From NCBI GenBank assembly GCA_017451915.1, contig JAFTNJ010000035.1, forward strand, positions 6,448-70,447: a DNA stretch of 64,000 bases. The letters run 5' to 3'. The stretch comes from Clostridia bacterium (GTDB lineage: Bacteria > Bacillota > Clostridia > Oscillospirales > CAG-272). The position numbers and the translations under genes are program-made. The notes beneath the pieces are model-generated. The model saw only the letters and a list, made by a program, of their open reading frames with translations. It did not search any database and was not told the origin of the DNA. Of this stretch, positions 34,144-52,995 are shown piece by piece (position 1 is the stretch's first letter; each line of letters starts with the position of its first letter).

Positions 34144-35655
34144 TCAATTTCGATTTTCCTCGATCCGCGTCAGGATCTGCGAGATTGCCGCAGGAATCTT
34201 GGCCACGGTGTCCGACGCCACCATACTGATGGGGTTGCTCTCCGCCTGCGCCAATTCTCCGGCAAGGCCGGCGATATAAGCACCGCAGGCCGCGGTCAGT
34301 GGCGTTGCCGAGGCGAATCCCAACAGTCCTGCCAGGATCCCCGAGAGCACGTCGCCGCTCCCTGCGGTTGCCATGCCGGAGCAGCCGCGGGAAACCAGCA
34401 AAACCTCCTCACCGTCGGTGACCACGGTGCAGGGTCCCTTGAGCAGGAGCACCACGCCCATCTCCTTGGCGTACGCCTTGGCGCAACCAATGGGATCCTC
34501 TTGGATCTCCTTCATGGAATAGCGACTCAATCGCTCGAATTCCTTGAGGTGCGGGGTCAGGATCACCGCACAATCGGTGGTTTTCAAAATGGATGGATCC
34601 ATTTCGGCCAAGGTATTCAAACCGTCGGCATCGATCACCAGGGAAATGGCATAGGAGCGCAGAATGTGCTCCAGGATCTGCGGATACGCCGCAGATCGTC
34701 CCCAGCCCATTCCAACGGCAAGCGCTCTTTGCTTGGAAAGCACCGCGTCCAAGGCCTTGGGCGAAAAGAGCATCCGTCCTTCCCCATCGCTTGGCAGACA
34801 CGCCATCGTACTCTCCAGCAGATAGGGAGATACGCTATTTTGAATTGCGTCGGGCAGGATCACCTGGGCCACGCCGCAGCCTGCGCGCAATGCGGCACAG
34901 CTGAGATTGGCCAGCTTAACGGCCCCGGAATAGGAGGTACAGCCCCCCAGAACCGAAACGTAGCCGTAATCCCCCTTGTGGGAATTCTGACGGCGGGGCT
35001 TCAATACCTCTCCCAGATCCTCCGGCTCCACCAAGAAGGCGGCCGAGCCGTAGAGATCGATGCCAATGTCCCGGTTTATCACGCGGCGCATCACATCCTT
35101 GGCGTCGTTCAAAAAATGTCCCGTCTTATAATATCCAATGGAAACCGTCAGATCCGAATGGACGCAAAGGGGCGAGCGTCCGCTGTTGCCGCAAAGACCG
35201 CTGTTGATATCCACGGAGATCACGGTCTTTCCGCTTTGATTGATGGCGCGGATCACGTCGGCCACATCCCCTCGCACCTCACCCGCAAAGCCGGTGCCGA
35301 GAATACAGTCCACGATCTCGCAAAAGTCCCCAAAGGACTCCCGAGGCGTCCAGGAACGGATCTCAATCCCCTTTTTGCGGCAATCCTCATAATAAAACGC
35401 GCCGTCCTCGGAAAAACGGTCCGAGAGCAGAAATACCACCGCGGGGATCTTCCGCTCCCAAAGCAATCCCGCCAGCACGTAGCCGTCGCCGCCGTTGTTT
35501 CCGCTTCCGCAAACGATGGCAACCGGCCCCTTCCAGTCGTAGCTTTCCAGGATCCCCTGTCCCGCGCGTCGCATCAGCTCGCGCCCGGAAATTCCGCTTT
35601 GAATGGTTCTTTCATCGCTGTGGCGCATAGTCTCAACACTTACAACCTTTTGCAA
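34144..35655 (-). CDS. nnr: Bifunctional NAD(P)H-hydrate epimerase / ADP-dependent dehydratase
   Basis: GSGNNGGDG (YjeF-N) and GSGDVLSG (carbohydrate-kinase C-domain). The start must lie downstream of the promoter at 35678-35706. I chose TTG 35655, which is 9 nt after AAGGAG; TTG 35664 and ATG 35628 are alternatives. The 634-aa ORF-track call is over-extended. Confidence 0.85.
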   Translation of the reverse strand: MQKVVSVETMRHSDERTIQSGISGRELMRRAGQGILESYDWKGPVAIVCGSGNNGGDGYVLAGLLWERKIPAVVFLLSDRFSEDGAFYYEDCRKKGIEIRSWTPRESFGDFCEIVDCILGTGFAGEVRGDVADVIRAINQSGKTVISVDINSGLCGNSGRSPLCVHSDLTVSIGYYKTGHFLNDAKDVMRRVINRDIGIDLYGSAAFLVEPEDLGEVLKPRRQNSHKGDYGYVSVLGGCTSYSGAVKLANLSCAALRAGCGVAQVILPDAIQNSVSPYLLESTMACLPSDGEGRMLFSPKALDAVLSKQRALAVGMGWGRSAAYPQILEHILRSYAISLVIDADGLNTLAEMDPSILKTTDCAVILTPHLKEFERLSRYSMKEIQEDPIGCAKAYAKEMGVVLLLKGPCTVVTDGEEVLLVSRGCSGMATAGSGDVLSGILAGLLGFASATPLTAACGAYIAGLAGELAQAESNPISMVASDTVAKIPAAISQILTRIEENRN

Positions 35656-35677
35656 CCTGATCAACTCCTTTGCTCCT

Positions 35678-35706
35678 ATTATACAACAGATCCCGCACCC
35701 TGTCAA
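35678..35706 (-). promoter_or_regulatory. Consensus promoter TTGACA-17-TATAAT of nnr
   Basis: On the minus strand, TTGACA is at 35706-35701 and TATAAT at 35683-35678. It lies inside the over-extended ORF-track reading frame. Confidence 0.7.
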
Positions 35707-35811
35707 TGAAATTACCATATTTTTGGGGGTTCCATTTTCCGAAAAAATGATTATAATAAGAATAAGAGGACATTGCTTCCGTCCAAAAAAAGAAAGGAGT
35801 AGCCTTTTTGC

Positions 35812-36471
35812 ATGGAACTGATACGTATCAGCAGCAGCAAACTCAAAATTATGCTGACCCCTACGGATATGTGTCACTTTGAGCTGAACAACGATTGCAT
35901 TGGCGACGACAACGAAAAAACGCGCCGCGCCTTCCGCCATCTGATGACCGAGATCAAAAAGCAGACCGGCTTTGATGCGGACGATAACCATATTTCCATA
36001 CAGTATTTTCCCTCCCGCGAAGGAGGCTGCGAAATGTTTATTACTCACCTCCCCGCGTTGCCCCCGGCCACGGCCGAGCGCATCAACGAAGGGACCGATG
36101 CCCGTGCCGGGGAGCGGGGAAAGGCGCCGCCCCAGCGCGGCCCCTCCGGAGCCCTTGCCAAGCGTGGAATCAACGCCTTCCAGCGGGATTTTGCCTATCG
36201 GTTTGACGCCGTGGAGGATCTGCTCTCGGTCTGCCGACGCCTCCTGGATCTGGATTACATCGGCGCCTCCCAGGCCTTTCGGGATGAGAGGAAAAGCTAT
36301 TATCTTCTCCTCTCCCTGCTCTGCGCCTCCCCCTTTTCCCTGCCGGAGGAGCTGGGCTTTATCAACGAGTACGGTATGCCGGAAAACGCCGCCATGCTAA
36401 AGCTCTATCTCAAGGAGCACGGAACTCTGCTCTGCGCCTCCAATGCCGTTTCCATTCTCGCAGACCTGTGA
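35812..36471 (+). CDS. mecA: MecA-like Clp adaptor protein
   Basis: N-terminus MELIRISSSKLKIMLTPTDMCHFEL, an Ala/Pro/Gly-rich linker and a C-terminal YYLLLSL...YLKEHG region resembling MecA. Confidence 0.6.
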   Translation: MELIRISSSKLKIMLTPTDMCHFELNNDCIGDDNEKTRRAFRHLMTEIKKQTGFDADDNHISIQYFPSREGGCEMFITHLPALPPATAERINEGTDARAGERGKAPPQRGPSGALAKRGINAFQRDFAYRFDAVEDLLSVCRRLLDLDYIGASQAFRDERKSYYLLLSLLCASPFSLPEELGFINEYGMPENAAMLKLYLKEHGTLLCASNAVSILADL

Positions 36472-36479
36472 TCTTCATA

Positions 36480-36516
36480 AAAAAAGCACTCTTCAAGGTT
36501 GAAGAGTGCTTTTTTT
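36480..36516. terminator. Bidirectional terminator
   Basis: AGCACTCTTC-AAGGTT-GAAGAGTGCT flanked by A5 and T6 runs, between convergent genes. Confidence 0.8.
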
Positions 36517-36517
36517 A

Positions 36518-38019
36518 TCAGTTCCACTTACTGAACAGCTCGTTCAGAGTCTTTACGTGGTATTCTGCCATGCTACGCTGGCTGTTCCACCAGGTAGTAA
36601 AATTGTGTCCGGAATGAGAAACCAAGTAGTATCCGGGCATACCCACGGGAGAGCCCCAATAGGATGCCATATCGTACACGCGCCCTTCCTTGATCATATC
36701 CATGATCGCATAGCTTTGCGGATCCTGGGAAAATTTCAGCTTCAGGATCTGCTCATAGTAAACCGGGACCACCGAGCGATAGCCCTCGGCACACAGGGCC
36801 TCCAAGACCGCGCCAAGGAATTCCAGGCGTTCCTCGCTCTTTCCCATGGGAATACCAATCTGGTTTGCGCCCGCGTCTACCCAGGAGTGGTAGCCGTCTA
36901 CCGTGTCGTCCCACTTGGGCCACGGGATCACGCCGTAATCCAACATTCCCTCCTGGATCAGAGTAGAGATCTCATAGGTACGCAGATCCATAAACAGGAG
37001 ATTTCCCTGGGCAAAGAGACGGCGCAGCTGGATCAGTTGGACCGAGGAGGTGAATTCTTCAAAGATGTCACAGTTGTCCTGCTCCATGAATTCAAAGAAT
37101 TTTGCAAAAATGGTTTCATTGCGCTCGTTATAAAGGGTCAGCGAAAAGGTGCTACCGTCGTTGTGGGAGACCTTTCCTCCGCCGGAATACAGAACATTGA
37201 TGGGACCACAGTACTTATCGGTTACATAGCCCATAATATCCCCGTCCTCCAGGACCAGCTTGCTGTCACCGTTTTTGTCGGCACTGGCCTGTTTTACCAT
37301 GCTTGAAAAAAGTTCAAAGGTCCAATCCTCGGTCAATACCGCGCCGTAGGGCTCCTCCAGGCCGAGATCCTTGCAAAGCGTTTTATTAAACACCATGGAG
37401 TCGGTGTGCCCCAGGAGCTGATAGCTGATATCACCGCCAATAAAGAACATCTTGCCGTTGATCTCAAAATCCTCGATCATATTCTGATCCCAATACTTCT
37501 TGGTGAGGTCAAGATGGGGACGGTGTTCAGATCCAGCATCAGCGATCCCTGGGCGTATTTGCTCAGAGAGTGTCCGTGATTGATGATCAGATCCCAATCG
37601 CAGGCACCGCTTTGGATCGTGGCAAACAGAGAAATATCGTAGTTATCGCTGGGAGAACGCCCAATCGTGTAGTAAATGCCGCCAAATCGCTCGGATACCG
37701 CCTCGTTCCGCTGATATACGGCGCGGTCCACGAAGGAGGTTGCAGTATCATAGGATTCAACGTACTGGTCGGAAATAAAGAAATCGTTATTCCGCATATG
37801 GATCTTCAGCTCATATCCGGAAAAATTCAGCTCGGGGAGATCTTCCACGTATGCGGGATCCTCGGTAGCAACCGTGGTTGCCTCCGTAGAGGTCACCGGA
37901 GCATTGGTGGTTGCAGACGGAACGTTGGTTCCTCCGCCACATGCAATCAGGGTACCAAAAAGCATACCAAGAAAAAGAAGAAGGCACAAAATGCGTGATA
38001 TACGACTGTTTTTTCTCAT
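36518..38019 (-). pseudogene. Extracellular solute-binding lipoprotein (CUT1 sugar-ABC type) split by a 1-nt frameshift
   Basis: The N-terminal ORF 37477-38019 (lipobox LIACG) and the C-terminal ORF 36518-37597 are contiguous parts of one SBP. The frames join at the G4 run 37516-37519: adding one base gives ...LNTVPHLDLTKKYWDQN... Confidence 0.8.
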
Positions 38020-38053
38020 GGGAACGCTCCTTTTTTTATTTTTTTACGGTTTC

Positions 38054-38082
38054 ATTTTACCATGCTTTCAATTTCTTGTCAA
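38054..38082 (-). promoter_or_regulatory. Promoter TTGACA-17-TAAAAT of the frameshifted SBP gene
   Basis: On the minus strand, TTGACA is at 38082-38077 and TAAAAT at 38059-38054 with an upstream TG. An AAAGGAG RBS precedes ATG 38019. Confidence 0.65.
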
Positions 38083-38179
38083 TCAAAAAAGATAAAATCA
38101 CCGAAAATATCCTATTCTTTAGAAAAAAGCCCCCTCTTTTTTTCGTTTTGAAAGAGTTTTTTGAATTGGCTCGACGTAA

Positions 38180-39325
38180 TTACTTTTTCAGAAGCTCCTC
38201 TACGGCAGAGGCAAAGTGATCCATTTGCTCTTTTGTGTTATAGATTCCCGGGCTGACCCGCACCGCACCACCGGGAGGGGTATTCAGTGTGGTATGTCCC
38301 AGAGCCGAGCAATGATATCCGGCACGGACGCAAAAGCCGCAACGGTTCAACCAATCCCCTACCCCATCGGCAGAGATCCCCTCCACGCCAAACAACAGCA
38401 CCGCGCCCGAATGCTGTGGGGCGTAGATCCGCACGCCCGGAAGGTGCCGCAGGTGATTTTGCAGTCTTGCATTCAATCCCGCAATATGCCTGGCGATCGA
38501 AGCTACCCCCAACCGCTTCACCTCTCGGATCCCCTCGCAAAGGCCAACGATGGCGGGCGTGGCAAGAGTACCCGCCTCGTAGCGCTCGGGGGCCTCCAGG
38601 GGCATTTCGGCATCCAGAGAATTGTATCCGCTGCCGCCCTCCAAAAGGGTATCGGCCATAATCCCGTCTCCCAGCAGTAGCATTCCGCTCCCCTGGGGAC
38701 CAAGCAGTCCCTTGTGTCCCGGCACGCAGAGAGCGTCGATGGCCATTTCCTTCATATCAATCACCTCATGACCCGCCGACTGGGCGGCGTCTACTACGAA
38801 AAGAAGTCCGTGACGTCGGCAAAAGGCCCCCAACTCCCGCAAGGGAGCCTTCCAGGAGCAAATATTGGAGGCATGGGTACAGATCAGCATTCGCGTATTG
38901 GGACGCAGACATTTTGCGATTCCCATGCAAAGATCGGCCACCGTGGCCTCGGGGTGTGTGACAAGGCTGGGAAAGACGTCAAAGGTGATCCGCCCCTGAT
39001 TCTTCAACTTCTGCACGGGACGGTAAACGGCATTGTGCTCCATATCCGAGAGAAGAACGTGATCCCCTTGGCGAAGCAGGCCTTTGACGGCCATATTCAA
39101 GGCAACAGTGGTATTGGGAGTAAAGATCACGTTCTCGGGAGAGGACACACCAAAAAAAGCCGCCGCCTCCTCACGGCAGGCGTAAATGCGCTCTGCCGCC
39201 TCCATGGCAAGGGCGTGGGAGCCCCTGCCCGGATTGCCGCAATACTGGCGCATACACCGCAGCATCTCATCGCTGACCCGAGCCGGCTTTGGAAAGCTGG
39301 TGGCCGCGTTATCAAGATAGATCAT
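38180..39325 (-). CDS. Cysteine desulfurase-family class V aminotransferase
   Basis: MIYLDNAATSFPKP N-terminus and PLP-lysine region HKGLLGPQG. 381 aa. Confidence 0.85.
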   Translation of the reverse strand: MIYLDNAATSFPKPARVSDEMLRCMRQYCGNPGRGSHALAMEAAERIYACREEAAAFFGVSSPENVIFTPNTTVALNMAVKGLLRQGDHVLLSDMEHNAVYRPVQKLKNQGRITFDVFPSLVTHPEATVADLCMGIAKCLRPNTRMLICTHASNICSWKAPLRELGAFCRRHGLLFVVDAAQSAGHEVIDMKEMAIDALCVPGHKGLLGPQGSGMLLLGDGIMADTLLEGGSGYNSLDAEMPLEAPERYEAGTLATPAIVGLCEGIREVKRLGVASIARHIAGLNARLQNHLRHLPGVRIYAPQHSGAVLLFGVEGISADGVGDWLNRCGFCVRAGYHCSALGHTTLNTPPGGAVRVSPGIYNTKEQMDHFASAVEELLKK

Positions 39326-39570
39326 ACCGAATCTCCCTCGTAGTACTCACGAACACGGATCCCCGCGCTCTTTAAGATCTGTTGCACATTCTCCTGTTGG
39401 GAACAGGAAAACGCAACGGCATAGGCACATCCGCGCTTGGTTCTTGCCGAATCGGCCTTGACCACCTCCGCGCGGATGGCGGCATTGGTCAAGGCGGTCT
39501 GGGCACGCAGGGCCTGGGTCATGGAGCCGAGGGTTGCCAGACAAACGCCTCGGGATGCATATTCCTTCAT
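39322..39570 (-). CDS. DUF3343-like small protein (putative S/Se carrier partner of the desulfurase)
   Basis: 82 aa. ATGA stop/start overlap with the desulfurase gene. GAAGGGAGGTG RBS. The family name is from memory. Confidence 0.6.
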   Translation of the reverse strand: MKEYASRGVCLATLGSMTQALRAQTALTNAAIRAEVVKADSARTKRGCAYAVAFSCSQQENVQQILKSAGIRVREYYEGDSV

Positions 39571-39715
39571 CGTCTACACCTCCCTTCTACTGACAGAATA
39601 TGACAAAACCGTAGGAAAAGTGACGGGATCCGCAGGCTTCCGCATTCGACTCCGCGGGTTTGCGAATAGAGCGGCCAAGGATGGGCGATACTGAAGCTGT
39701 ATTCCAAAATAATGA

Positions 39716-41044
<1,329 letters not shown>

Positions 41045-41156
41045 TTCCTGCACCAAGGGATAGAAAATGCCTGCATCAAAAAGGGTGTTGTCCTTATCGG
41101 AGAAATAAGATATGGGTATGGGCATAGCCCGATGCATTTGTTTAACAAATGCGAAA

Positions 41157-41172
41157 CTCTCTCTCTCTCTCT
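41157..41172. repeat. (CT)8 dinucleotide microsatellite
   Basis: CTCTCTCTCTCTCTCT read directly from the sequence. A complementary GAAGAGAGAG lies at 41187-41196. Confidence 0.95.
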
Positions 41173-41189
41173 TTCGATAAAATACAGAA

Positions 41190-41232
41190 GAGAGAGCAAA
41201 TCGGTTTATAGCCGAATTGTTCTCTCTTTTTT
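41190..41232 (+). terminator. Intrinsic terminator of eno
   Basis: A 15-bp stem, GAGAGAGCAAATCGG / CCGAATTGTTCTCTC, with one mismatch and one G-U pair. Loop TTTATAG, then TTTTTT. Confidence 0.8.
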
Positions 41233-41249
41233 CTGCTTTTCAGTTTAGA

Positions 41250-41461
41250 GTTATGAGGCTCGCCAAATTGCCTTGCAATTTATCTCGCCGTTATGAGTTT
41301 GCCTTTGGCTTCGCCAAAATGCAAACGTTATGATATGATTGCCACGTGTCCCTTTAGCGCGACGTAGTCGCTCATAACTTGGCGTAGCCAATCAGAACTC
41401 ATAACTTGCCCGTATGGGCAATCATAACTTCGCGTGTTCTCCGTTAAGGATAACACGCGAA
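41250..41461. repeat. Array of six convergent GTTATGAG/CTCATAAC octamers interleaved with six unrelated hairpins (unknown element)
   Basis: Octamers start at 41250, 41290 and 41327 (plus sense) and at 41371, 41398 and 41421 (complement), with a degenerate copy at 41391. Hairpins are at 41265-41281, 41297-41326, 41359-41371, 41379-41391, 41406-41421 and 41429-41461. Confidence 0.9.
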
Positions 41462-41484
41462 AAGATGCAGGCTTTTTTAATCAA

Positions 41485-42294
41485 TTATGAAACCGGCTCG
41501 GGAGCCTCGGCCGTCGGTTCGGAGTTCTCCGAGAACAGCGGCGGGAAGGTAAAGGTGGTTTCGTCCACGTCGTAAAACAGCTTGTAAAAGTCGCTTCCCA
41601 GATTCTTGCCGTAGGGTGAGGAACGGAACATTCCCGACCGATGCTTTAAAATGGGATAAAAGCGATTGTCGGCGATGAGCAGATGCTCCACAAAGGCAAT
41701 GCCGATGGACTCCAGATAGACCTGGGCGGAATCGGTCAGCTCGTAGTCGTTGGGCGACGGAACTGCCAAGCCGCTGGGATGGTTGTGCGCCAACACCACG
41801 GCCGCAGCCTTCTTCTTAACAATGATATCGTTGATCTTGGCTAAAGGCAAACTGGTGCTGTTGACCGTTCCCTCGGACACCAGCACGCAATCCAACAGAT
41901 TCATGCGATTATTGAACAGCATCATATACAGCCGCTCGCGGGTGACACCGATGTATAAGCGGAATAAATAATGAAGAATCTGGCTCAGGGAGTTATATCT
42001 TGTTACCGGGACAGCGCAATCCCTGGCATAACGCTTGGCGCACTCCAGGATCAGCTTGATCATAATTGCCGACTGTACTCCAATGCCGGGAACCTCGGTC
42101 AGATCCTCGATGTCGGCTTCCACCACGTCCTTAAAAGAGCCAAAACGTTCCAGCAGGCTATGTGCGCAGCCGTTGGTATCCACTCTTGGCCGGGAAGAAT
42201 AGAGCAACGTCTCCAGCAGCTCGTGGTCCGCAAGATTCTCAAAGCCCTCTCGCAATATTCGGTTTCTCATTCTTTTTCTATGATTCTCATGCAT
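41485..42294 (-). CDS. radC: RadC-like JAB/MPN-domain protein
   Basis: HhH segment LTEVPGIGVQSA and JAMM motif HNHPSG...PSPNDYELT. There is an approximately 45-aa C-terminal extension relative to the usual length. Confidence 0.85.
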   Translation of the reverse strand: MHENHRKRMRNRILREGFENLADHELLETLLYSSRPRVDTNGCAHSLLERFGSFKDVVEADIEDLTEVPGIGVQSAIMIKLILECAKRYARDCAVPVTRYNSLSQILHYLFRLYIGVTRERLYMMLFNNRMNLLDCVLVSEGTVNSTSLPLAKINDIIVKKKAAAVVLAHNHPSGLAVPSPNDYELTDSAQVYLESIGIAFVEHLLIADNRFYPILKHRSGMFRSSPYGKNLGSDFYKLFYDVDETTFTFPPLFSENSEPTAEAPEPVS

Positions 42295-42314
42295 ATCTCT
42301 TCCATCAAGATCGC

Positions 42315-43112
42315 TTATTTGCGTTTCAGGCGACCAATCACGTGTCCCTTACACTGGACGTCTTCAAAATCCTTCAAAAGGATGGGAGCATAATCGGGAT
42401 TCAGCGAAAGCAACCGATCCCCGCCGTAGACCTTGAAGAAGCCGCAACCGTCCAGCAGGAAGATTCCAAGCTCGCCTACCTCCACGCCATCGGCGTGCTG
42501 TACCAGGAGAATATCACCGTTATGATACTTGGGCTCCATACTGTTGCCGCTGATGCGCAGAGCATAGTCGGCCTCGGCGGTCTTTTCGTTGTTGGGAATA
42601 CTGATGCTCTCGGCGCGCTCCTCATCCAGATACACGCCAACGCCGGCAGACACCGGAAGATCGTACAGCTGTATATTCCGCTTACCCGAGCGCACTCGCT
42701 GCTCCTCGGCATAGCGGTTGCCAAGGCGAATGGGTTGAAGAATTCGCGCCGGCTTTTCTTCCTTCTCGGCAGGTACGAAAGATGCTCCGCGCGCAATGGC
42801 CTTGGTCATCACGCTGTCCACCAGATCTCTTCCCCAGGCATCCAACTGACGGTAGTCCTCAATCACGCGGATCTCCTCGGCACTCAAGGTATAATTATGG
42901 GTATTTTCCGGCGTGCCGCTGACGATGTACTCCACCGAGCAATCCAAGGCACCGCAGATTGCAATAATATTGGAAAGCTTTGGAGAATCACTCATTCCCG
43001 CCAGGAGCTTGCTCAGGGTTCCCAGAGGGATCCCGGTCATGGCGGCCAGCTGATCGTTGGTGATCTTCTTTTTATTTTTCAAGAGCTTGATACGGTCAAT
43101 ATAGGTTTCCAT
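42315..43112 (-). CDS. XRE-HTH / S24 peptidase repressor (LexA/CI-like)
   Basis: ATG 43112 (METYIDRIKLL...) follows AAGGAGG. HTH segment ITNDQLAAMTGIPLGTLSKLLAG and S24 catalytic GNSMEP with a downstream Lys. The stop lies 20 nt before radC. Confidence 0.85.
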   Translation of the reverse strand: METYIDRIKLLKNKKKITNDQLAAMTGIPLGTLSKLLAGMSDSPKLSNIIAICGALDCSVEYIVSGTPENTHNYTLSAEEIRVIEDYRQLDAWGRDLVDSVMTKAIARGASFVPAEKEEKPARILQPIRLGNRYAEEQRVRSGKRNIQLYDLPVSAGVGVYLDEERAESISIPNNEKTAEADYALRISGNSMEPKYHNGDILLVQHADGVEVGELGIFLLDGCGFFKVYGGDRLLSLNPDYAPILLKDFEDVQCKGHVIGRLKRK

Positions 43113-43142
43113 ATTCCGCCTCCTTTTTCCGTTTACGATACT

Positions 43143-43170
43143 ATTATACCACTTTTTTTGAATTTGTAAA
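43143..43170 (-). promoter_or_regulatory. Promoter TTTACA-16-TGgTATAAT of the repressor-radC operon
   Basis: On the minus strand, TTTACA is at 43170-43165 and TATAAT at 43148-43143, with an extended -10 TG. Confidence 0.6.
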
Positions 43171-43211
43171 GAGGTTTTTGAAATATTTTTTCTTTTTTTG
43201 GAAAAAAGGTA

Positions 43212-43240
43212 TTGACAAACCCCAAAAAAGGTGCTATAAT
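43212..43240 (+). promoter_or_regulatory. Consensus promoter TTGACA-17-TATAAT, divergent from the repressor gene
   Basis: TTGACA at 43212-43217 and TATAAT at 43235-43240. The -35 is flanked by AAAAAAGGT(A/G) direct repeats at about 43202 and about 43224. Confidence 0.7.
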
Positions 43241-43283
43241 GTGCCTGTAAGAAATTCCAATTTTGGTAATTTTGGAGGGCTTT

Positions 43284-43628
43284 ATGAATCGCTCTGTAGA
43301 AAGAAACGACTATACTCATTCCGATAACGGAATTTTCGAGGCGTTTTTCACCGAATCGCAAAGTTATAAAACCGGCCTGCAAAAAGGCGTTGACGCACTG
43401 CTTTCCTTCCTGTTTGTTTTGCGCCGTATCCTTTGCGGACAAGCCGTTCGCAAGTGGAGCAAGGTGGTATCCCTTTCCCTTTGCCTGGTAGGCTTTGTTG
43501 GTGTGATCGGTGCCATGGAGCGCGGCACTCTGGGCCTTGGCATGGGAATGTTGATTGGCGCGGGGCTGCTTTTGGTAGAGTATTTTTGCCTGCGTAGCAA
43601 GTCCACCAACACCAAGGAGAACGAATAA
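43284..43628 (+). CDS. Small hypothetical membrane protein (114 aa)
   Basis: ATG 43284 follows GGAGGG. Two or three hydrophobic segments (VDALLSFLFVL, VVSLSLCLVGFVGVIGA, GMGMLIGAGLLLV). No family recognised. Confidence 0.5.
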   Translation: MNRSVERNDYTHSDNGIFEAFFTESQSYKTGLQKGVDALLSFLFVLRRILCGQAVRKWSKVVSLSLCLVGFVGVIGAMERGTLGLGMGMLIGAGLLLVEYFCLRSKSTNTKENE

Positions 43629-43637
43629 AATAATGAT

Positions 43638-43678
43638 AAAAAAACGGCCGCTGACGTTTCGTCGGCGGCCATTCTTTT
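43638..43678. terminator. Bidirectional terminator
   Basis: GGCCGCTGACG-TTT-CGTCGGCGGCC (43646-43670) flanked by A8 and a T-rich run. Confidence 0.75.
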
Positions 43679-43684
43679 ATGGAT

Positions 43685-44758
43685 TTATTGCGTTACATTC
43701 TCCGTGGAAAGCAGAAGATCGGCCAGGGCCGTTCCCACGTATGCGGCGGCTCGCTTTGCCTGCTCCGGCGTATTGGCGCCGCTCCCGATCTCCAACAAAA
43801 GATACCCCGGCAGGAGCTCTTGATTATAGGAAGACTGTCGCAGAGAGATGGGACGACAAAGGGTGGGAAGCATCTGATTCAAGTGCTCCCGAAGCTGCAG
43901 GGCCAGCGCAAGATTGGCTTGCCAATCATAGGCCGTGCCATTGCAGTCACTTCCTACCACCGCCATCACCTGGGCAACCTCCCCGTCGGCGGTCAGAAGA
44001 CGAACATATTCTCCGTCTCCCGTCAGGATGGCGTCCCGATGGAGATCAATAACGCAAACGATACTCGGGTACTCCGCAAGATACCGCCTCACCGTTTCCA
44101 AGGAACGCTCGTAGGCTCCGCGCAGGGTGGGCTCGTCGTGACGAAGGGTGCAGTGAAGGGTCTCGATCCCCTTCTCGTTCAGCACACGGCAGAGCTCAGC
44201 CCCCACACCGATCACGTTTTCTTCCTCCACCGTGCTGTACGTCAGATCTCCCGGCAGTCCGTCCATGTCCTCCCCTCCGTTGGGAAGATAACTTTCGGTG
44301 GTGTGGGTGTGCAGGATCAGCACCTTGGGTCCCTCCCCCGTAAAGGGAGAAAGCGGCGCGGAAAGCAGATCGGCCACGTTGGGCTTATAAGGGGTTTCGT
44401 TGTGCAGATAAGCAGAGCCCAGGGAAGGATACGAAAGGTCCATCTCCACGATGGGGGTCTGTCCCGAGGGTTGCGGAGATTGGCCTGCGGGGGCGGTGGT
44501 AAGCGCGTTGGGAGGATAGGTGCCGCCGTCCCCGGTGCCATCGGGAGCCTCGGTGGTAGCCGCGGGAAAGAAGGACCGCCAGGGATCGAGAAGATTGCCC
44601 CGCATGGCAATGGATACCACGGCAAAGGCAGCCACCAACAGCGTGCAACCGATCAAAAAGGTACAAAAAACGCGGGAGGCGCTTCCGTGGGAACGGGGAC
44701 GCAGGGTGATCGGCTCGTCCCCCGCGGGCAAAAGTGAATTCTTGTTGGATGCTTCCAT
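43685..44758 (-). CDS. spoIIP: Stage II sporulation protein P
   Basis: ILHTHTTESY and DLHRDA motifs with an N-terminal TM anchor. Start at ATG 44758 (MEASNKN...) after GGAAGGGAGAA. Confidence 0.85.
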   Translation of the reverse strand: MEASNKNSLLPAGDEPITLRPRSHGSASRVFCTFLIGCTLLVAAFAVVSIAMRGNLLDPWRSFFPAATTEAPDGTGDGGTYPPNALTTAPAGQSPQPSGQTPIVEMDLSYPSLGSAYLHNETPYKPNVADLLSAPLSPFTGEGPKVLILHTHTTESYLPNGGEDMDGLPGDLTYSTVEEENVIGVGAELCRVLNEKGIETLHCTLRHDEPTLRGAYERSLETVRRYLAEYPSIVCVIDLHRDAILTGDGEYVRLLTADGEVAQVMAVVGSDCNGTAYDWQANLALALQLREHLNQMLPTLCRPISLRQSSYNQELLPGYLLLEIGSGANTPEQAKRAAAYVGTALADLLLSTENVTQ

Positions 44759-44839
44759 GTGGGTTCTCCCTTCCGTGCAACGGTCTTGCCGTTGCGTCTG
44801 GTTCACTCTATGCGCCCCCAACGCGCTTTATTCCAAAAT

Positions 44840-45727
44840 TCAAAGGCCGGTAAAGGCCGCAGCGATGGAGGACGAGAGAAGCCGCGCCACCCGCTCGGTG
44901 ATCACGTCGCTTTCCTTTGGAGAAACGAAAAAGTGCTTTCCGGTTTCCAGTACGCGGGTCAAGGGCTCCCCGATCTCCCGGATCCCTGCCTCCCGCAAGG
45001 CGTCGTACACCAAAGTGGCCGAATCCACCACCGTGGGAACCCCCAACGCCAGCACCGGAACCCCGAGGGTCTCCCGTGTCAACGCCGCCCGATGGTTGCC
45101 TACCCCGGAGCCCGGGGATATGCCTGCGTCCGAGAGCTGAACCGTGGAGGCCAAGCGGTTACAATCCCGGGCGGCCAGGGCATCCACGGCAATGACAACG
45201 TCGGGGTGAATGCATTCCACCACACTTTTGAGCAGCTCGCAGGTTTCCATCCCCGTCTGTCCCAACACGCCCGGAGCCAGGAGAGAGAGGGCGGAACAAC
45301 CAATGGACCGATACAGGCCCTGCTCATGCTCCCGCAAATGCCGCGTAGCGGTAAGATACCCCACCGTCTTGGGGCCAATGGCGTCGGCTGTCATTTCAGC
45401 GTTTCCAAGGCCCGCGACAAAAACGCCAAAGGAGGCATCCGCCGGCTTGCCCGTCAGGCGTTGCGCCATTCCCCGCAGCTTTCCCGCAAGAAGGCGGATC
45501 AAAAGATCCTCGTCCTCTTCGCCCATCATCACCAGCTTTCCGCACTCCACCGTAAGGTAGCTTCCGGGGGCCATGGGAGGCGTTTCCCCCGCCTCCGACG
45601 GAGGCACCGTCATCTCCAGGAGCATAAAAGGCCCCACCTGCTCCCGCCGCACCTGTTGTGCCGCTCCTCCTATTCGATCCTCGTCAATCCCTTCACAGGC
45701 CAAATCGGTTCTTGCATGAAAATTCAT
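44840..45727 (-). CDS. gpr: Germination protease (GPR endopeptidase)
   Basis: N-terminal RTDLACE motif. 295 aa. Adjacent to spoIIP, as in Bacillus. Confidence 0.85.
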   Translation of the reverse strand: MNFHARTDLACEGIDEDRIGGAAQQVRREQVGPFMLLEMTVPPSEAGETPPMAPGSYLTVECGKLVMMGEEDEDLLIRLLAGKLRGMAQRLTGKPADASFGVFVAGLGNAEMTADAIGPKTVGYLTATRHLREHEQGLYRSIGCSALSLLAPGVLGQTGMETCELLKSVVECIHPDVVIAVDALAARDCNRLASTVQLSDAGISPGSGVGNHRAALTRETLGVPVLALGVPTVVDSATLVYDALREAGIREIGEPLTRVLETGKHFFVSPKESDVITERVARLLSSSIAAAFTGL

Positions 45728-45758
45728 TTTTTCCTCCCATCTCGTTAAAATATGTCCT

Positions 45759-45788
45759 TACTTTGCCAAGAAAATTAACAAAATATAC
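45759..45788 (-). promoter_or_regulatory. Candidate forespore sigma-G/F-type promoter of gpr
   Basis: On the minus strand, GTATA (45788-45784), an 18-nt spacer, then CAAAGTA (45765-45759). This resembles the remembered gHATR-18-CAtnnTA pattern. No TTGACA/TATAAT promoter is present. Confidence 0.4.
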
Positions 45789-45809
45789 ACGAAAAGATTT
45801 GGGAATCTA

Positions 45810-45838
45810 TTGAAATCGCAAAAAAAATAGTATATAAT
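45810..45838 (+). promoter_or_regulatory. Promoter TTGAAA-17-TATAAT of the family-5 SBP gene
   Basis: TTGAAA at 45810-45815 and TATAAT at 45833-45838. Confidence 0.65.
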
Positions 45839-45906
45839 ATAGGGGTACATATGGCGCATTCCGCCGAATTCCGATTTTTTCATTTATGAGGAGGATTTAC
45901 AGTACC

Positions 45907-48057
45907 ATGTCAAAACGGATCATTGCACTTCTTCTGTGCGCATTCATGCTCATTCCCTGCTTCGCATCCTGTGCGAAAAAGGACGAAGATGACGTAGGCG
46001 CATACATCACGATGTATCTGACCGACGACACCTTTGACTTTGACCCCGCCAACGCGTATTACAACAAGGATTCGATCAATATCATCGGCCTGCTGTTCGA
46101 TACGCTCTTTACCCTGGACAAGGATGGAAAGGTAAAGAAATCGCTGGTTGAGGAATACGAGATCATTGAGGACGTTGAAAAGAACGAATACTCCATGGAG
46201 CTCAAGCTGAACGAAACCTGCTGGAGCAACGGCACCCAGCTGAGCGCCGATGACGTGGTATTCGCTTGGAAGCGCTTGGTAAACTCCAATAACAACTTCC
46301 CCGCCGCCTCTCTCCTGTACGACGTGAAGAACGCCCGTGCCATCAAAGAGGGTGACGTTTCCATCGACGACCTGGGCGTTGAGGCAATCGCGCTGGACAT
46401 GGTGAAGGTAACCTTTGAGGGTCCCATCGACTATGACCAGTTCCTGCTGAATCTGACCAGCGTTGCTACCGCTCCCCTGTATGAGAACTATGTTACCAAG
46501 AACGCCGACTGGGCAAAGAAGCCTTCTACCATGGTAACCAGCGGCGCTTACAAGATCGGTAAGATCAACTACAAGGACGTTACCGAGCCTCTGCTCAACT
46601 CCAAGGGTGAAGTTGTAGAAGGCCAGGAGGTTCAGGTGAAGGTTCCCGATGACTACGCTTTTGACGAAGGCTACTACGGCATGGAAGAGGACGTAGAAAA
46701 GGGCACCATCGGCAGCGGCACCTACGTTCGCAAGAAGATCAACTTCTTCTACCTGGAAAGAAACGTTTACTACTACCGTGATACCGAGAGAGATTCCATC
46801 GACGAGTCGGTTACCAACTACCGTATTCTGGTGGATTGCACCATGACCGATGCTCAGCTCCTGGAGGAGTACAAGGCCGGCCGTATCTTCTACGTTGGCA
46901 ACATTCCCCTTTCCCTGCGCGGTGATGCCTTTGTAAAGGAAAACGTAAAGACCACCAACGCACTCTCCACCTTCGTTCTCTACATGAATGAGAACGCCCT
47001 GATCGATGACGGAGGCGACGGCTCCAAGCTGTTTGCCGATGCCAACGTTCGCAACGCGCTTTCTCTGGCCATTGACCGTCAGGCCATTGCCGAGGCAGTG
47101 GTTTACGCCAAGGCAGCAACCGGTTTGGTTTGCCCCGGCGTATTTGACACCAACAGCAAGAAAAAGGAATTCCGCACCGAGGGCGGCGATCTGATTGCCA
47201 CCTCCAAGAACCTTGCCAAGGCGCAGGAGCTCCTGACTGCCGCAGGCATTACCCCCTCCAAGTACACCTTTACCGTAAAGGTTGCCGGCAACGATGAAGT
47301 AAACGTTGCCATTACCAAGATGATCGTTGCCGCATGGCAGGAGCTTGGCTTTAACGTAACCATGGAAGAGATCTTCGTGATCACCAACAACGACTACTAT
47401 AAGGAAACCGACTCGGTTCCCAACGACGTTTGTGACGATCTGTTCATCGAATCCATCCAGAGAAACAAGTACGAGGTTATCGCCTTCGATTACAACGCTT
47501 ACTCTGCTGACGCTTACTCCATGCTCTCCAACTTTGCAAACTCCTTCTCGGGCATGGCTCTGCAGCTGGTTGACGGCGTGTATAGCCTGACCCCCAACAG
47601 CACCGGCTACACCAGCACCGAGTACAACGATCTGATGGAAGCCATCTACTACATTCCCTACTTTGCAAAGCTGACCGAGGATAGCTACAGCTTCCTGGGC
47701 CTGTACGACACCGCAGAGGAGTTCAAGACCCTCTACAACAAGATCAAGGCCATCTATGAGGCCAACGGCATTACCCCCTCCACCAAGCCTGCTGATTGGA
47801 CCAAGCAAAAGTCCACCCTGCTCCACAAGGCAGAGGAGCTGCTGCTGAAGGATATGCCCGTGATCCCCGTGGTATTCAATGAGAATGCCGTTCTGGTAAG
47901 CGACGAGCTGACCAAGGTATCCTCCACCTACTACATTCCCGCTTACTTCCGCAAGACCAACCTCAAGGATTATCAGGATTACGTTCCTGTCCTGGAGGGC
48001 TTCCCCGCAGTGGATTGGAGCAAGAAGGGCTACGTAGCACCCGAAGAAACCAAATAA
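45907..48057 (+). CDS. Orphan ABC substrate-binding lipoprotein, family 5 (peptide/oligosaccharide OppA-like)
   Basis: ATG 45907 follows GAGGAGGA. Lipobox FASC. About 716 aa. No permease or ATPase gene is adjacent. Confidence 0.8.
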   Translation: MSKRIIALLLCAFMLIPCFASCAKKDEDDVGAYITMYLTDDTFDFDPANAYYNKDSINIIGLLFDTLFTLDKDGKVKKSLVEEYEIIEDVEKNEYSMELKLNETCWSNGTQLSADDVVFAWKRLVNSNNNFPAASLLYDVKNARAIKEGDVSIDDLGVEAIALDMVKVTFEGPIDYDQFLLNLTSVATAPLYENYVTKNADWAKKPSTMVTSGAYKIGKINYKDVTEPLLNSKGEVVEGQEVQVKVPDDYAFDEGYYGMEEDVEKGTIGSGTYVRKKINFFYLERNVYYYRDTERDSIDESVTNYRILVDCTMTDAQLLEEYKAGRIFYVGNIPLSLRGDAFVKENVKTTNALSTFVLYMNENALIDDGGDGSKLFADANVRNALSLAIDRQAIAEAVVYAKAATGLVCPGVFDTNSKKKEFRTEGGDLIATSKNLAKAQELLTAAGITPSKYTFTVKVAGNDEVNVAITKMIVAAWQELGFNVTMEEIFVITNNDYYKETDSVPNDVCDDLFIESIQRNKYEVIAFDYNAYSADAYSMLSNFANSFSGMALQLVDGVYSLTPNSTGYTSTEYNDLMEAIYYIPYFAKLTEDSYSFLGLYDTAEEFKTLYNKIKAIYEANGITPSTKPADWTKQKSTLLHKAEELLLKDMPVIPVVFNENAVLVSDELTKVSSTYYIPAYFRKTNLKDYQDYVPVLEGFPAVDWSKKGYVAPEETK

Positions 48058-48465: not shown

Positions 48466-49479
48466 ATGAAAGAAAAGCTTGCCCGTATTCGGAGCGAAGC
48501 ACTGGAACAGATCCACGATGCCAATGCTGACCCCGAGCAGATCAAAATCAAATATCTCGGCAAAAAAGGAGAGCTCACCGCCGTCCTGCGCGGCATGGGT
48601 GCCCTGAGTGCCGAGGAACGTCCCATCATTGGTCAGCTTGCCAATGAGGTGCGTGCCGACATTGAAAACGCGCTGACCGTTATGGTGCAGCAAAAACAAG
48701 CCAAAGCCCTGGAGGAAAAGCTGAAGGCCGAAAAGCTGGACGTTACCATGCCTGCCAAGGCGGCGCCCGTGGGTCACATTCATCCCCTGACCCAGGTTCA
48801 GCGTGAGCTGGAGGATATCTTTATCGGTATGGGCTTCTCCATTGTGGAAGGCCCCGAGGTAGAACTGGATTACTACAACTTCCAGGCTCTCAACATTCCC
48901 GAAAATCATCCCGCCCGCGATACCCAGGACACCTTCTATATTGGGGAAAACGTTCTCCTGCGCTCCCAGACCTCTCCGGTGCAGGTGCGTACCATGGAGC
49001 ACCAAAAGCCCCCCATTCGCATCATCTCCCCCGGCCGTGTGTACCGCTCCGATGCGTTGGATGCCACCCACTCCCCTCTCTTCCATCAGCTGGAGGGCCT
49101 TGTGGTGGATAAGGGCATTACCATGGGCGACCTGAAGGGCACTCTTGAGATCTTTGCCAAGAAGCTCTTTGGCGAGAGCACCCGCATCCGCTTCCGTCCC
49201 CACCACTTCCCCTTCACCGAGCCCTCCGCAGAGGTAGACGTTTCCTGCTTTGTTTGCGGCGGCAAGGGTTGCAGACTTTGCAAGGGTGAGGGTTGGATCG
49301 AAATTCTGGGCGCCGGCATGGTGCACCCCTTCGTGCTCTCCAACTGCGGCATTGATCCCGAGGAATACTCCGGCTTTGCCTTTGGATTGGGTCTGGAGCG
49401 TATCGCTATGACCCGCTACGGCATCGACGACATTCGTCTGTTCTACGAAAACGACGAACGCTTCCTCGAGCAGTTCTGA
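48466..49479 (+). CDS. pheS: Phenylalanine--tRNA ligase alpha subunit
   Basis: ATG 48466 (MKEKLARI...). [19 protein letters not shown] and [11 protein letters not shown] motifs. The ORF-track start 48337 lies inside the T-box leader. Confidence 0.93.
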
Positions 49480-49495
49480 TAGGAGGTATATTAAA

Positions 49496-51898: not shown

Positions 51899-51973
51899 AG
51901 CAATGAAAGTTTTGATCAAACTTTTTTAAAAGTTTGCGCGGTGGAGGGCGCGTAGCCCTCCTCGCGCTCCGCA

Positions 51974-52006
51974 GAGCGCGAAACATCCTTCGGCGCTTTT
52001 CTTTTT
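51974..52006 (+). terminator. Probable pheT terminator
   Basis: GCGCGAA-ACATCC-TTCG(G)CGC followed by TTTTCTTTTT. It is preceded by two further hairpins at 51906-51924 and 51936-51967. Confidence 0.5.
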
Positions 52007-52059: not shown

Positions 52060-52995
52060 ATGAAACACATTGATTTAAACTTTTTCCCCGGCTGGGTTCG
52101 CAAGTCCATCACCTTTACCATTGATGACGGCAACCTGAAGCTGGACAGAAAGTTTCTTAACATTACCGAGCCTGCGGGACTCAAGGGAACCTTCAATCTC
52201 AACACGCCCCTCAAGCGCGGCACCCCCGAGGAATACGTGGCCTTCTATAAGGGCTACGAGATCACCAACCATTGCAAGTATCATCCCATGGCATTTTCCC
52301 CAAGAATGCCTCTTCGCCCTGTTGCGGAGGAGGCATTTGACAAAACGACCGCCAACCCCGAATTTCTTTATCGCGCAGAGGAGGACGGCGTTTATTGGGG
52401 AAGCGATGTCCCCCACAACAGATGGTGGCACGTTGCAACCGACGAAAAATACCTTGCCTGCGCCCTTGATGCCACCGAGGAGCTGGAAAACGTCTTTGGA
52501 AAAGGCATCATTCAGGATTTTGTGTGGCCCTTTGGCGCGCAAGAAAACGAAGTGGTGTTTGAGGGCTTGAAGAAGCAGGGCTACCGCTCGATCCGTAAGA
52601 CGGGATGCGTGAAGAACAGCACGAATTTTGCCCTTCCCGCCGACCGCATGGCCTGGAGCTACAACGCCAACTGCAACTGCATGGAGGAGTGCGGCGCTCA
52701 ATACGACGCCCTTGCCGATGACGGCGAGTTAAAGTTCTTCTGCTTTGGCGTTCACTCCCACGACTTTGAAAACGCCGACTGTTGGGAGGTCCTGATCGAC
52801 TTTTGCAACAAGTACGGCAACCGTCCCCATGACTTCTGGTACGCCTCGGTGGGTGAGATCTTTGACTACGAGGATGCCGTGAAGGCGGTACAAATCACCG
52901 ACACCAAGATCGTCAATCCCTCCCCCGTGGATCTCTACATCAAAATTGATGGAGAGAATATCAAGCTGGCGGCCAAATCGGAAATGATGATCTGA
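52060..52995 (+). CDS. Polysaccharide deacetylase (NodB-like) family protein
   Basis: TFTIDDG (NodB motif 1) and NHCKYH (His-His motif 2 spacing). GAAGGAG RBS. Confidence 0.6.
   Translation: MKHIDLNFFPGWVRKSITFTIDDGNLKLDRKFLNITEPAGLKGTFNLNTPLKRGTPEEYVAFYKGYEITNHCKYHPMAFSPRMPLRPVAEEAFDKTTANPEFLYRAEEDGVYWGSDVPHNRWWHVATDEKYLACALDATEELENVFGKGIIQDFVWPFGAQENEVVFEGLKKQGYRSIRKTGCVKNSTNFALPADRMAWSYNANCNCMEECGAQYDALADDGELKFFCFGVHSHDFENADCWEVLIDFCNKYGNRPHDFWYASVGEIFDYEDAVKAVQITDTKIVNPSPVDLYIKIDGENIKLAAKSEMMI

Follow-up and report, generated by a model that had tools for sequence, protein, structure and literature searches.

Correia/NEMIS, ERIC, RUP and bcr1 are bacterial MITEs, or miniature inverted-repeat transposable elements, that form long RNA hairpins near terminators. 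Other mobile elements target palindromes: the insertion sequences (ISs) IS1397 and ISKpn1 enter the loops of repetitive extragenic palindromes (REPs), members of the IS110/IS1111 family also go to REPs, and class C group II introns settle next to terminators. A MITE of Porphyromonas gingivalis is reported to carry an internal minisatellite (PMC4596501). Here we analyse a 64,000-nucleotide stretch of contig JAFTNJ010000035.1 from a Clostridia bacterium (the window), in which an array of heptamers alternating with small hairpins occupies the spacer between the convergent genes eno and radC. Whereas the original prediction had taken this array for a feature of that one spacer, we find it highly probable that it belongs to a dispersed mosaic repeat of ~375 bp that is non-coding, and that it forms the hairpin module inside one copy. 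This copy would sit in a terminator loop and resemble REPs, bacterial interspersed mosaic elements (BIMEs) and MITEs; it would not be a regulator specific to radC.

Results

A non-random array lies in the eno–radC spacer

The heptamer GTTATGA occurs at 14 sites in the 64-kb window, compared with 4.9 ± 2.4 in 100 dinucleotide-preserving shuffles of the whole window, none of which reached 14. Six of these sites fall within 180 bp, three per strand, and their predicted positions proved exact: 41250, 41290 and 41327 on the plus strand, and 41372, 41399 and 41422 for the complement. A degenerate heptamer with one mismatch, TCAGAAC, was confirmed at 41392–41398. Spacing between heptamers is irregular (23, 27, 37 and 40 bp). 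The small perfect hairpins described earlier were likewise recovered, at 41265–41281, 41297–41326 (nested), 41359–41371, 41379–41391, 41406–41421 and 41429–41461, and heptamers and hairpins do tile 41359–41461 without a gap. A generic scan of the window for 7-mers (at least two copies per strand and at least five in total inside 350 bp) returned the array and just one weak, unrelated cluster. The claim that the array is non-random thus stands, and the small hairpins are maintained as structures in a 14-copy alignment (see below). Its supposed centre, CACGTG at 41343–41348, is present but not conserved in the closest copy found elsewhere (L136; compared loci and contigs carry L numbers), and we give it no weight.

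Three features go beyond the original prediction. A 46-nt imperfect inverted repeat (41059–41104 and 41437–41482) frames the whole spacer, a long-range complement joins 41335–41343 to 41417–41425, and the structure extends leftwards as far as 41083. That no known RNA family is involved was borne out by Rfam 15, which gave no match at gathering score in the window or in five other loci. With E values of up to 10 admitted over 40900–41700, only chance-level matches appeared; the sole match over the array was AaHKsRNA22, at 14 bits against a threshold of 39.8.

The extra DNA splits a predicted host terminator

All contigs fetched with RadC homologues keep gpr, spoIIP, a small open reading frame (ORF), the XRE-S24 gene, radC, convergent eno, an ORF of the Se_S_carrier family and an aminotransferase gene; the Se_S_carrier Pfam match was recorded in every fetched contig except L007 and L010. 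The radC–eno spacer measures 440 bp in the window and in a contig of its own strain (L001; 100% RadC identity). It measures 65 bp in L004 and L005 (81%), 74 bp in L007 (64%) and 42 bp in L011 (60%), where it is a plain hairpin terminator; the nearest RadC relative compared is the one at 81% identity, with no closer empty site in the comparison.

The outer part of the 46-nt repeat reads AAAA-GCCTGCATC ... GATGCAGGC-TTTTTT and forms a 9-bp stem. The eno stop (41044) and the radC stop (41485) enclose the stem, A-run and T-run, whose sequences predict an intrinsic terminator working in both directions, with about 380 bp now in its loop. The intact terminator of L004 carries CCTGCATC in the equivalent stem. 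The inner part of the repeat is a 20-mer, GTGTTRTCCTTAWCGGAGAA, found once per strand and nowhere else in the window. The extra DNA in the spacer corresponds to about 41083–41458; it ends in the inverted 20-mers and splits the terminator stem. The window copy thereby interrupts the loop of a predicted ancestral eno/radC bidirectional terminator, for which the empty site can be reconstructed as AAAATGCCTGCATC-AAAAG-GATGCAGGCTTTTTT.

The same architecture occurs at many unrelated loci

The 20-mer, queried with two positions left free, matched at least 120 loci in GTDB species genomes. Among the matches listed, all but one (L208) are in metagenome-assembled genomes (MAGs) of Clostridia, named as Oscillospiraceae, Christensenellaceae, Acutalibacteraceae, Ruminococcus, or 'Clostridia' or 'Eubacteriales' bacteria; where a source is part of the name, it is goat, sheep or deer gut. 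A contig end is only ~100 nt away from many of the listed matches, and two or three matches occur together in several MAGs, which is how an assembly-breaking repeat behaves. Two Logan contigs of the window's own strain (L002 and L003) both end at the same base, 41314, inside hairpin Hd of the array. This suggests a branch of the assembly graph, caused by other element copies or by a variant of the nested hairpin in the metagenome.

Examination of these loci (at least 120, mismatches allowed) yielded 43 complete copies, with inverted 20-mers 238–504 bp apart, mostly 330–450 bp. In the window, these terminal inverted repeats, a hallmark of MITEs, agree at 18/20 positions (41085–41104 on the plus strand and 41437–41456 on the minus strand), a match of which none is expected by chance. 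All 43 copies share one order of modules. Read from the better-conserved end, hairpin H0 (GC-GTGTTATCC-TTAAC-GGAGAACAC-GC, with a conserved A·G mismatch) is followed by three to five units of heptamer plus short hairpin, and then by a junction and the complement of the start of this run, which together with it makes up helix P1. Two to five units of inverted heptamer plus hairpin come next, including a conserved GAGCG..GCGAG motif, and after them a long GA/TC-rich hairpin, T. Core B, with the hairpins GGGC-TTA-GCCC and GCATTTGAC-NGG-TCAAATGC, precedes the inverted 20-mer at the other end.

Each complete copy is framed by complementary arms of its own, such as GGCGAAAGCACTT...AAGTGCTTTCGCC and GCAGAGGGTT...AACCCTCTGC, with an A-run before and a T-run after. 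The arms vary among copies and are therefore part of the host site. Among the 26 copies with a scorable long ORF on both sides, convergent ORFs flank 19, co-directional ones three in either sense, and divergent ones a single copy. L136, the closest copy, comes from a different MAG and occupies another host hairpin; it shares 84% identity and the same T with the window copy, and copies from different GTDB species are up to 94% identical. The window element contains only ORFs of 42–46 aa, and no reading frame is kept between copies. A small ORF at its B end (MFLAENLK...) was considered as a conserved gene and dismissed on the same grounds.

Parts of the element also vary in orientation and occur alone. 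H0 points one way relative to the array in 60 cases (flip) and the other way in 7 (flop, in four subfamilies), with 2 symmetric cases, and core B of the window/L136 type is inverted relative to the L234/L241 type, which indicates that short palindromic segments invert during evolution of the family. H0 was found by itself at the tips of terminator-like hairpins in L157, L158, L215 and L224. BLASTN of the element against PLSDB plasmids and INPHARED phages gave no match. Literature searches by literal sequence and keyword found no description of the element; subscription journals lie outside their coverage and a prior description is possible.

In L251 (6878–7115), two H0 hairpins 215 bp apart are each followed by the same TGAATT-type array, making this a tandem or partially duplicated composite copy. 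A small insert, GGGGTTCCCCGA(A/G)GCGAAG(C/T)ATGAGCTTTGGGGG, lies at varying positions inside the copies L225, L246, L156 and L183 and looks like a further mini repeat nesting in elements. Some 43 nt upstream of H0 (TACCTACCRACAG..GGACAGAGARTGTTTAGC) are common to L158 and L231, whose flanking genes are unrelated; in one of them H0 stands by itself at the tip of a hairpin, while the other holds a complete element. Possibly the T-like outer hairpin is a repeated module too, in which case modules would be nested.

The hairpin at 41190–41232 had been assigned to eno as its own terminator; the same hairpin recurs in element copies at unrelated loci such as L136, a homologue of T being present in every complete copy at such loci, and T is therefore part of the element. 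T has a T-rich 3′ shoulder on both strands, a sequence feature from which we infer that it works as a terminator. A canonical terminator had been thought absent between the radC stop and this hairpin, whereas the element sits inside a split host terminator and carries the terminator-like hairpin T at its centre. If transcribed, the array is indeed positioned as part of a radC 3′ untranslated region (UTR), as it follows the radC stop and precedes the nearest terminator-like hairpin. The statement that it is neither an IS end nor of a REP class was mistaken in spirit, since the array lies, as one module, inside a dispersed mosaic repeat that has terminal inverted repeats. Syntenic relatives do without the array and the architecture exists at 120 or more unrelated loci, so that neither a feature specific to this spacer nor a role for RadC or the neighbouring XRE-S24 repressor has any basis.

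Heptamers are uniform within a copy while stems covary

Each complete copy uses one heptamer, in three to five direct and one to five inverted positions. It is GTTATGA in the window, L136 and L241; other subfamilies have GTGAAGT, GTGATGT, GTGATAT, G/TCGATAT, TGAATTG or TGAAATC, these heptamers being one or two substitutions apart. Within an element, the change is uniform and extends to the partial heptamer in P1. A single MAG, JAZULL01, holds two subfamilies, represented by L136 and L175. Helix P1 would be formed by the 5′ arm of the first unit with the preceding part-heptamer, for which nearly all 43 copies have a perfect complement of 10–14 nt ~112 nt into the element. Its sequences are subfamily-specific (TATGATTGCC, GAGATAAATCCC, TGAATTGCAACC, TCAAATCCGTCT, TAAGTTTGCCC and TTCTATTCGCC). 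P1 excludes the first local hairpin and also a ladder of direct and inverted heptamers. The three-rung heptamer ladder proposed earlier is accordingly one of two mutually exclusive candidate foldings, with P1 as the alternative.

A metagenome scan for the first unit of the window array gave 34 further loci, and fourteen composite copies of the GTTATGA type were aligned for covariation. In the two variable hairpin slots and Hd, 97–100% of cells were paired and 11 of 15 pairs showed double-sided changes; for the two variable slots alone, this was 9 of 10. None of 500 shuffles reached these values, and structures slid by 1–3 columns fell to 25–49% paired. Part of the covariation is replacement of whole hairpins, as the window has GCGAC-TAC-GTCGC where most copies have TTGGC-TTC-GCCAA. 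The small stems are maintained through compensatory change or whole-unit replacement. Heptamers, first hairpin and P1 are invariant within the subfamily, so that the 14-copy alignment is uninformative on them and their support comes from comparison between subfamilies.

Compared with shuffles, the window element folds far better on either strand (z = −10.1 and −12.6), and the minimum free energy (MFE) structures of both strands are predicted to close the split host stem. Across the 43 copies, the MFE of the strands differed by 1.8 ± 7.4 kcal/mol (Wilcoxon p = 0.10), and single non-Watson–Crick stem positions comprised 35 G·T and 24 A·C (p = 0.19). As neither energies nor mismatches are asymmetric, nothing points to a strand-specific RNA, a candidate that we rejected. 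The hairpins are kept as Watson–Crick palindromes, as expected if both strands matter, through convergent transcription from both sides or a single-stranded DNA stage.

Arrays also stand alone, some of them near a REP system with its own transposase

The metagenome scan further revealed GTTATGA–hairpin arrays that lack H0, T and B. In L268, a tandem run of at least 12 units of 23 nt (GTTATGA-TTGCCC-TTGC-GGGCAA, including variants with compensated stems) gives way to inverted units, and shorter stand-alone arrays were found in L256, L259, L261, L266, L272, L280 and L283. Those of L271 and L278 lie between a stop codon and the ribosome-binding site of the next gene. When the orthologous arrays of L272 and of L261/L286 were compared, flanks were 82–88% identical and heptamers, centre and last unit were kept; the remaining hairpins differed in number and identity. 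Hairpin units thus turn over faster than the flanking DNA. The array is accordingly a REP/BIME-like module in its own right, and it forms one part of the mosaic that is the composite element. A scan of IMG/VR for three spaced GTTATGA gave 118 matches, the pattern being too unspecific, and the hairpin-bearing matches listed were all tandem repeats of identical units, none with differing spacers. One IMG/VR contig, L014, has arrays with the heptamers ATATCAC and ATGAATT (1–120 and 930–1290), 800 bp apart. No phage evidence was seen in the stretch of L014 examined, and its 'viral' label may reflect a host fragment.

In L278, a gene for a 160-aa Y1 transposase lies between two GTTATGA arrays. Its product matches Pfam Y1_Tnp (E = 4e-5) and, as its top NCBIfam match, the model of the REP-associated tyrosine transposase (RAYT), REP_Tyr_transpos (E = 8e-18, below the equivalog cut-off), and the gene is named RayT by JGI. 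Classical GTAG REPs (CCGTAGGGGCGAGCATCGCTCGTCCC) directly flank this gene and its homologues at 68–81% identity (L287, L298, L299/L300), whereas homologues at ~50% identity lie in operons without repeats. In all five RAYT loci examined, GTAG REPs are the direct neighbours; heptamer arrays occur further out, and only in L278. A profile of 120 RAYT homologues found no further copy in ~150 array or H0 loci, nor in the window. The GTAG REPs are thus the partners of the L278-type RAYT, which is linked to the heptamer arrays indirectly at most.

The RAYT/GTAG REP loci, a classical REP/RAYT system of related gut Clostridia, are situated at deoB–cdd (L278 1115–1830, L287 1037–1760, L298 600–1640 and L299 844–2242), L299 having BIME-like arrays of about ten alternating GTAG REP units. 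GTAG REPs were also seen inside or beside GTTATGA arrays in L259 (13700–13880) and just upstream of the array in L261, L269, L276 and L286; the two repeat systems therefore co-localise. In L259, two GTAG REPs in inverted orientation, roughly 100 nt apart, make up a REP doublet forming a hairpin (REPIN).

Feature list of the window copy and its neighbours

Table 1. Coordinates in the window of the element, its host site and the adjacent genes.
Feature	Position	Strand	Details
Enolase gene (eno)	39737–41044	+	Pfam; stop at 41044
5′ arm of split host terminator (GCCTGCATC)	41069–41077	.	Complementary to 41464–41472; A-run 41064–41067 before
B-end terminal inverted repeat	41083–41104	+	GG + 20-mer GTGTTGTCCTTATCGGAGAA; 18/20 match to other end, inverted
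Core B	41112–41155	.	Two hairpins with conserved flanks
Core B hairpin 1	41120–41130		GGGC-ATA-GCCC
Core B hairpin 2	41134–41152		GCATTTGTT-T-AACAAATGC
(CT)8 microsatellite inside element	41157–41172	.	Window copy only; L136 has GACTGGCGAT there
Hairpin T, long GA/TC-rich terminator-like stem-loop	41179–41239	.	Arms 41188–41204 and 41212–41228, 88% complementary
Whole array in family plan	41250–41428		
Array distal half	41243–41334	-	Three TCATAAC heptamers, GCGAG...GCGAG motif, hairpin Hd, then CTCTAAAC
GCGAG...GCGAG motif	41257–41289	-	Inserted hairpin 41265–41281
Hairpin Hd	41297–41326	-	Nested hairpin 41303–41320; Hd covaries
Helix P1, 3′ strand (GGCAATCAT)	41335–41343	-	Pairs with 41417–41425
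Array proximal half	41359–41428	-	GTTATGA-Ha-GTTATGA-GTTCTGA-Hc-GTTATGA-Hx
Hairpins of proximal half	Ha 41406–41421; Hc 41379–41391; Hx 41359–41371	-	
Terminal hairpin H0	41432–41458	-	GCGTGTTATCC-TTAAC-GGAGAACACGC; contains other 20-mer, 41437–41456
3′ arm of split host terminator (GATGCAGGC) and T-run	41464–41478	.	
RadC gene	41485–42294	-	Pfam; stop codon 41485–41487
HTH/peptidase-S24 (XRE-S24) gene	42315–43442	-	Pfam

Several parts in Table 1 set the window copy apart or tie it to others. The nested hairpins in Hd and in the GCGAG motif are extra in the window relative to 12–13 other copies. The B-end type recurs in L136, L151, L155, L175 and L209, and the sequence of core B is kept across all heptamer subfamilies. 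The (CT)8 run is complementary to the GA-run of the T stem and offers an alternative pairing; its length may differ between strains.

An independent small RNA with a sigma-70 promoter was considered and rejected. Two weak plus-strand consensus matches (9/12, second hexamer TATGAT) lie at 41305–41339, inside the array, with none at the element ends, and core B, read in several copies, has no conserved −35/−10 pair. Readings as attC, CRISPR, iteron, pac-site, shufflon or recombinase arm-site arrays were set aside for wrong unit size, spacing or orientation and for absent partner genes.

Past the XRE-S24 gene lie the genes for SpoIIP and germination protease (Pfam). The mechanically called XRE-S24 ORF has 375 aa; the same protein is called at 264–266 aa on related contigs, where a small divergent ORF lies upstream, and translation probably does not cover the long N-terminal extension of the window ORF. 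Elsewhere, between the divergent ORFs 49406–51919 (minus strand) and 52060–52995 (plus strand), positions 51906–51990 hold a palindrome, AAAGTTTTGATCAAACTTTT, and a G+C-rich nested hairpin, GCGCGGTGGAGGGC-GCGTA-GCCCTCCTCGCGC, both unrelated to the element.

Discussion

As a dispersed mosaic repeat, the element would be selfish or near-neutral and would persist in terminator loops at convergent gene junctions. It could do so because its interior self-folds on either strand, which would bring the arms of the host stem together, and because it supplies a bidirectional terminator of its own in T. Transcripts of eno would pass the host 5′ arm and core B before ending at T, while those of radC would run through H0 and the array and end there too, making the array a radC 3′ UTR unrelated to the function of radC. 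The heptamers may act as identical single-stranded joints in a multiloop closed by P1, or as 7-bp rungs that link direct with inverted copies and so draw the units together into a compact rod. Since all are alike, the heptamers would permit pairing in any register as well as unequal exchange, leading to gain, loss, swapping and concerted change of units. Most likely, the element would be non-autonomous and would spread with the help of an enzyme supplied in trans that acts on DNA in hairpin or single-stranded form; nothing implicates RadC or the XRE-S24 protein in this.

Several observations weigh against this interpretation. No target-site duplication was found, junction repeats of 2–5 nt being no commoner than in mismatched flank pairs (for k = 4, 3 observed and 1.4 expected). 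The 120 loci (up to 8 kb each) contained no inverted 20-mer pair 1–3 kb apart that would mark an autonomous relative. Among 1257 ORFs within 3 kb of the 20-mer at these loci, no transposase or recombinase recurred; those that clustered belong to common paralogous families (ABC transporters, LRR, AraC, SDR, histidine kinases and GH2). Mobility is argued only from distribution, similarity between copies and absence in relatives, and the 64-kb window has just one copy. Of T, a simple terminator scan picks up just an inner 6-bp stem. Simple nested pairing does not call for uniform heptamers, which could instead reflect recognition by a trans factor, and the high sequence conservation that H0 and core B show across families could point to a host function beyond selfish spread.

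A host function is the substance of one rival, which is possible but rather doubtful: the array would be a structured RNA domain selected by the host in 3′ UTRs and operon spacers, with spread as a secondary matter, and would act as a barrier to 3′–5′ exonucleases, a processing platform, or a heptamer sponge for a small RNA or RNA-binding protein. Covariation of the small hairpins, constant heptamers amid stem turnover and the location of composite copies between stop codon and terminator (and of the L271 and L278 arrays between stop codon and ribosome-binding site) are what it would lead one to expect, as are five G·U in the Hd pair 138–168 on the H0-first strand. It sits poorly with the overall lack of strand bias in folding energy or in G·U versus A·C, with the placing of most copies between convergent genes, where either strand may be transcribed, and with syntenic relatives that manage without the array. 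The heptamer, moreover, varies among subfamilies, even in one MAG, which argues against a single trans partner. A far narrower role, that of a locus-specific operator or binding array for the LexA-like XRE-S24 repressor or RadC, is scarcely credible. Both genes are close by and the heptamer is repeated in convergent orientation, yet three relatives with the same gene pair have no array, its heptamers are irregularly spaced, and the array type recurs at dozens of loci beside unrelated genes (ABC transporters, AraC regulators, GH2 enzymes and kinases).

We regard it as unlikely that the heptamer–hairpin units are REP-like substrates of a Y1/HUH RAYT, with the heptamer in the role of GTAG, the hairpin read by shape only, and the arrays being BIME-like clusters made and moved on single-stranded DNA. 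The build of the units (a constant 5′ motif plus palindrome, in two opposed blocks) recalls REP/BIME clusters, and strand symmetry fits an element acting at the DNA level. The Y1/RAYT gene of L278 between two GTTATGA arrays, the L271 array at the deoB–cdd site where relatives carry a RAYT, and the GTAG REPs or REPINs beside or inside the arrays of L259 and L261 add to this likeness. Nevertheless, the immediate flanks of the L278 RAYT and of four homologous loci are GTAG REPs and not heptamer units, homologues at ~50% identity have no flanking repeats, and the profile finds no other RAYT in ~150 array or H0 loci or the window. Two heptamer subfamilies in one MAG (L136 and L175) would, in addition, demand more than a single enzyme specificity. 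Quite unlikely, too, is a dedicated machinery, of HUH/Y1 type or another enzyme acting on single-stranded DNA, with its specificity set by the heptamer, that builds, shuffles and copies hairpin cassettes at the heptamers. If true, this would define a new class of self-organising repeat, with constant joints, fast-replaced structured units, heptamers that change in concert within a lineage and flipping hairpin tips, whose logic is unlike that of REPs, CRISPR or integron cassettes, and such arrays might serve the host as modular 3′-end stabilisers or terminator cassettes.

If the element is indeed a dispersed mosaic repeat as described, then the Clostridia of gut and rumen, for which most knowledge comes from MAGs, harbour an abundant and apparently undescribed family that colonises terminator loops, brings its own terminator-like hairpin and combines constant 7-nt joints with fast-turning, covarying hairpins. 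Such repeats break short-read assemblies and are easily mistaken for locus-specific regulatory RNAs or operators, as happened in the original prediction; they are also a possible marker for strain typing. The family would provide a natural test of how large an insert an intrinsic terminator tolerates, and a new case for studying both the concerted evolution of short identical repeats within one element and the trans-acting enzymes that mobilise hairpin DNA in Firmicutes.

Among known systems, REPs and BIMEs share with the element short extragenic palindromes in opposed clusters, conserved linkers and a mosaic of module types. They also share its location at gene 3′ ends, between convergent genes and in operon spacers, its many assembly-breaking copies per genome and hairpins that fold on both strands. 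The pattern of conservation is, however, inverted, the linker heptamer of the element being constant and the palindrome stems variable. In place of GTAG or GTGG it has motifs of 7–8 nt (GTTATGA, GTGAAGT, TGAATTG, CGATAT and others), no cognate RAYT flanked by heptamer units was found among the five RAYT loci examined, and the composite element makes up a discrete ~350-bp unit that ends in inverted sequences and contains a terminator-like hairpin of its own. With Correia/NEMIS, ERIC, RUP, bcr1 and the MITE reported from Porphyromonas gingivalis, it has in common a size of ~350 bp, the lack of an ORF, terminal inverted repeats, dispersed multicopy occurrence, strong predicted secondary structure and an internal repeat array with a variable number of units. 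Unlike MITEs, it shows no detectable target-site duplication, nor did the loci examined yield a parent IS whose ends match; it is inserted specifically in the loops of intrinsic terminators, and its array consists of covarying hairpins between invariant heptamers instead of a plain tandem repeat.

The apparent target, a hairpin apex, is shared with palindrome-targeting ISs, all 43 complete copies (43/43) lying in copy-specific stems. Those elements encode a transposase or reverse transcriptase, whereas this one encodes nothing, and no signature of a group II intron or other Rfam family was found in the window or five other loci. Hairpins of constant shape and variable sequence, flanked by short boxes containing AAC/GTT, recall integron attC sites and clusters of attC sites lacking integron-integrases (CALIN). 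GTTATGA, however, violates GTTRRRY, the hairpins are not each bracketed by an inverse-core/core pair, and units measure 13–33 nt against 57–141 nt for attC; there are no cassettes, Pfam detected no integrase among the ten ORFs spanning 34144–48057, and the heptamers form two opposed blocks whereas attC sites are co-oriented. REP/BIME clusters and structured bacterial MITEs come closest among known kinds, but the element falls outside the defining features of both REPs/BIMEs (GTAG and RAYT) and MITEs (target-site duplication and parent IS). Allowing for a possible prior description, it is apparently an undescribed family member of the REP/BIME/MITE sort.

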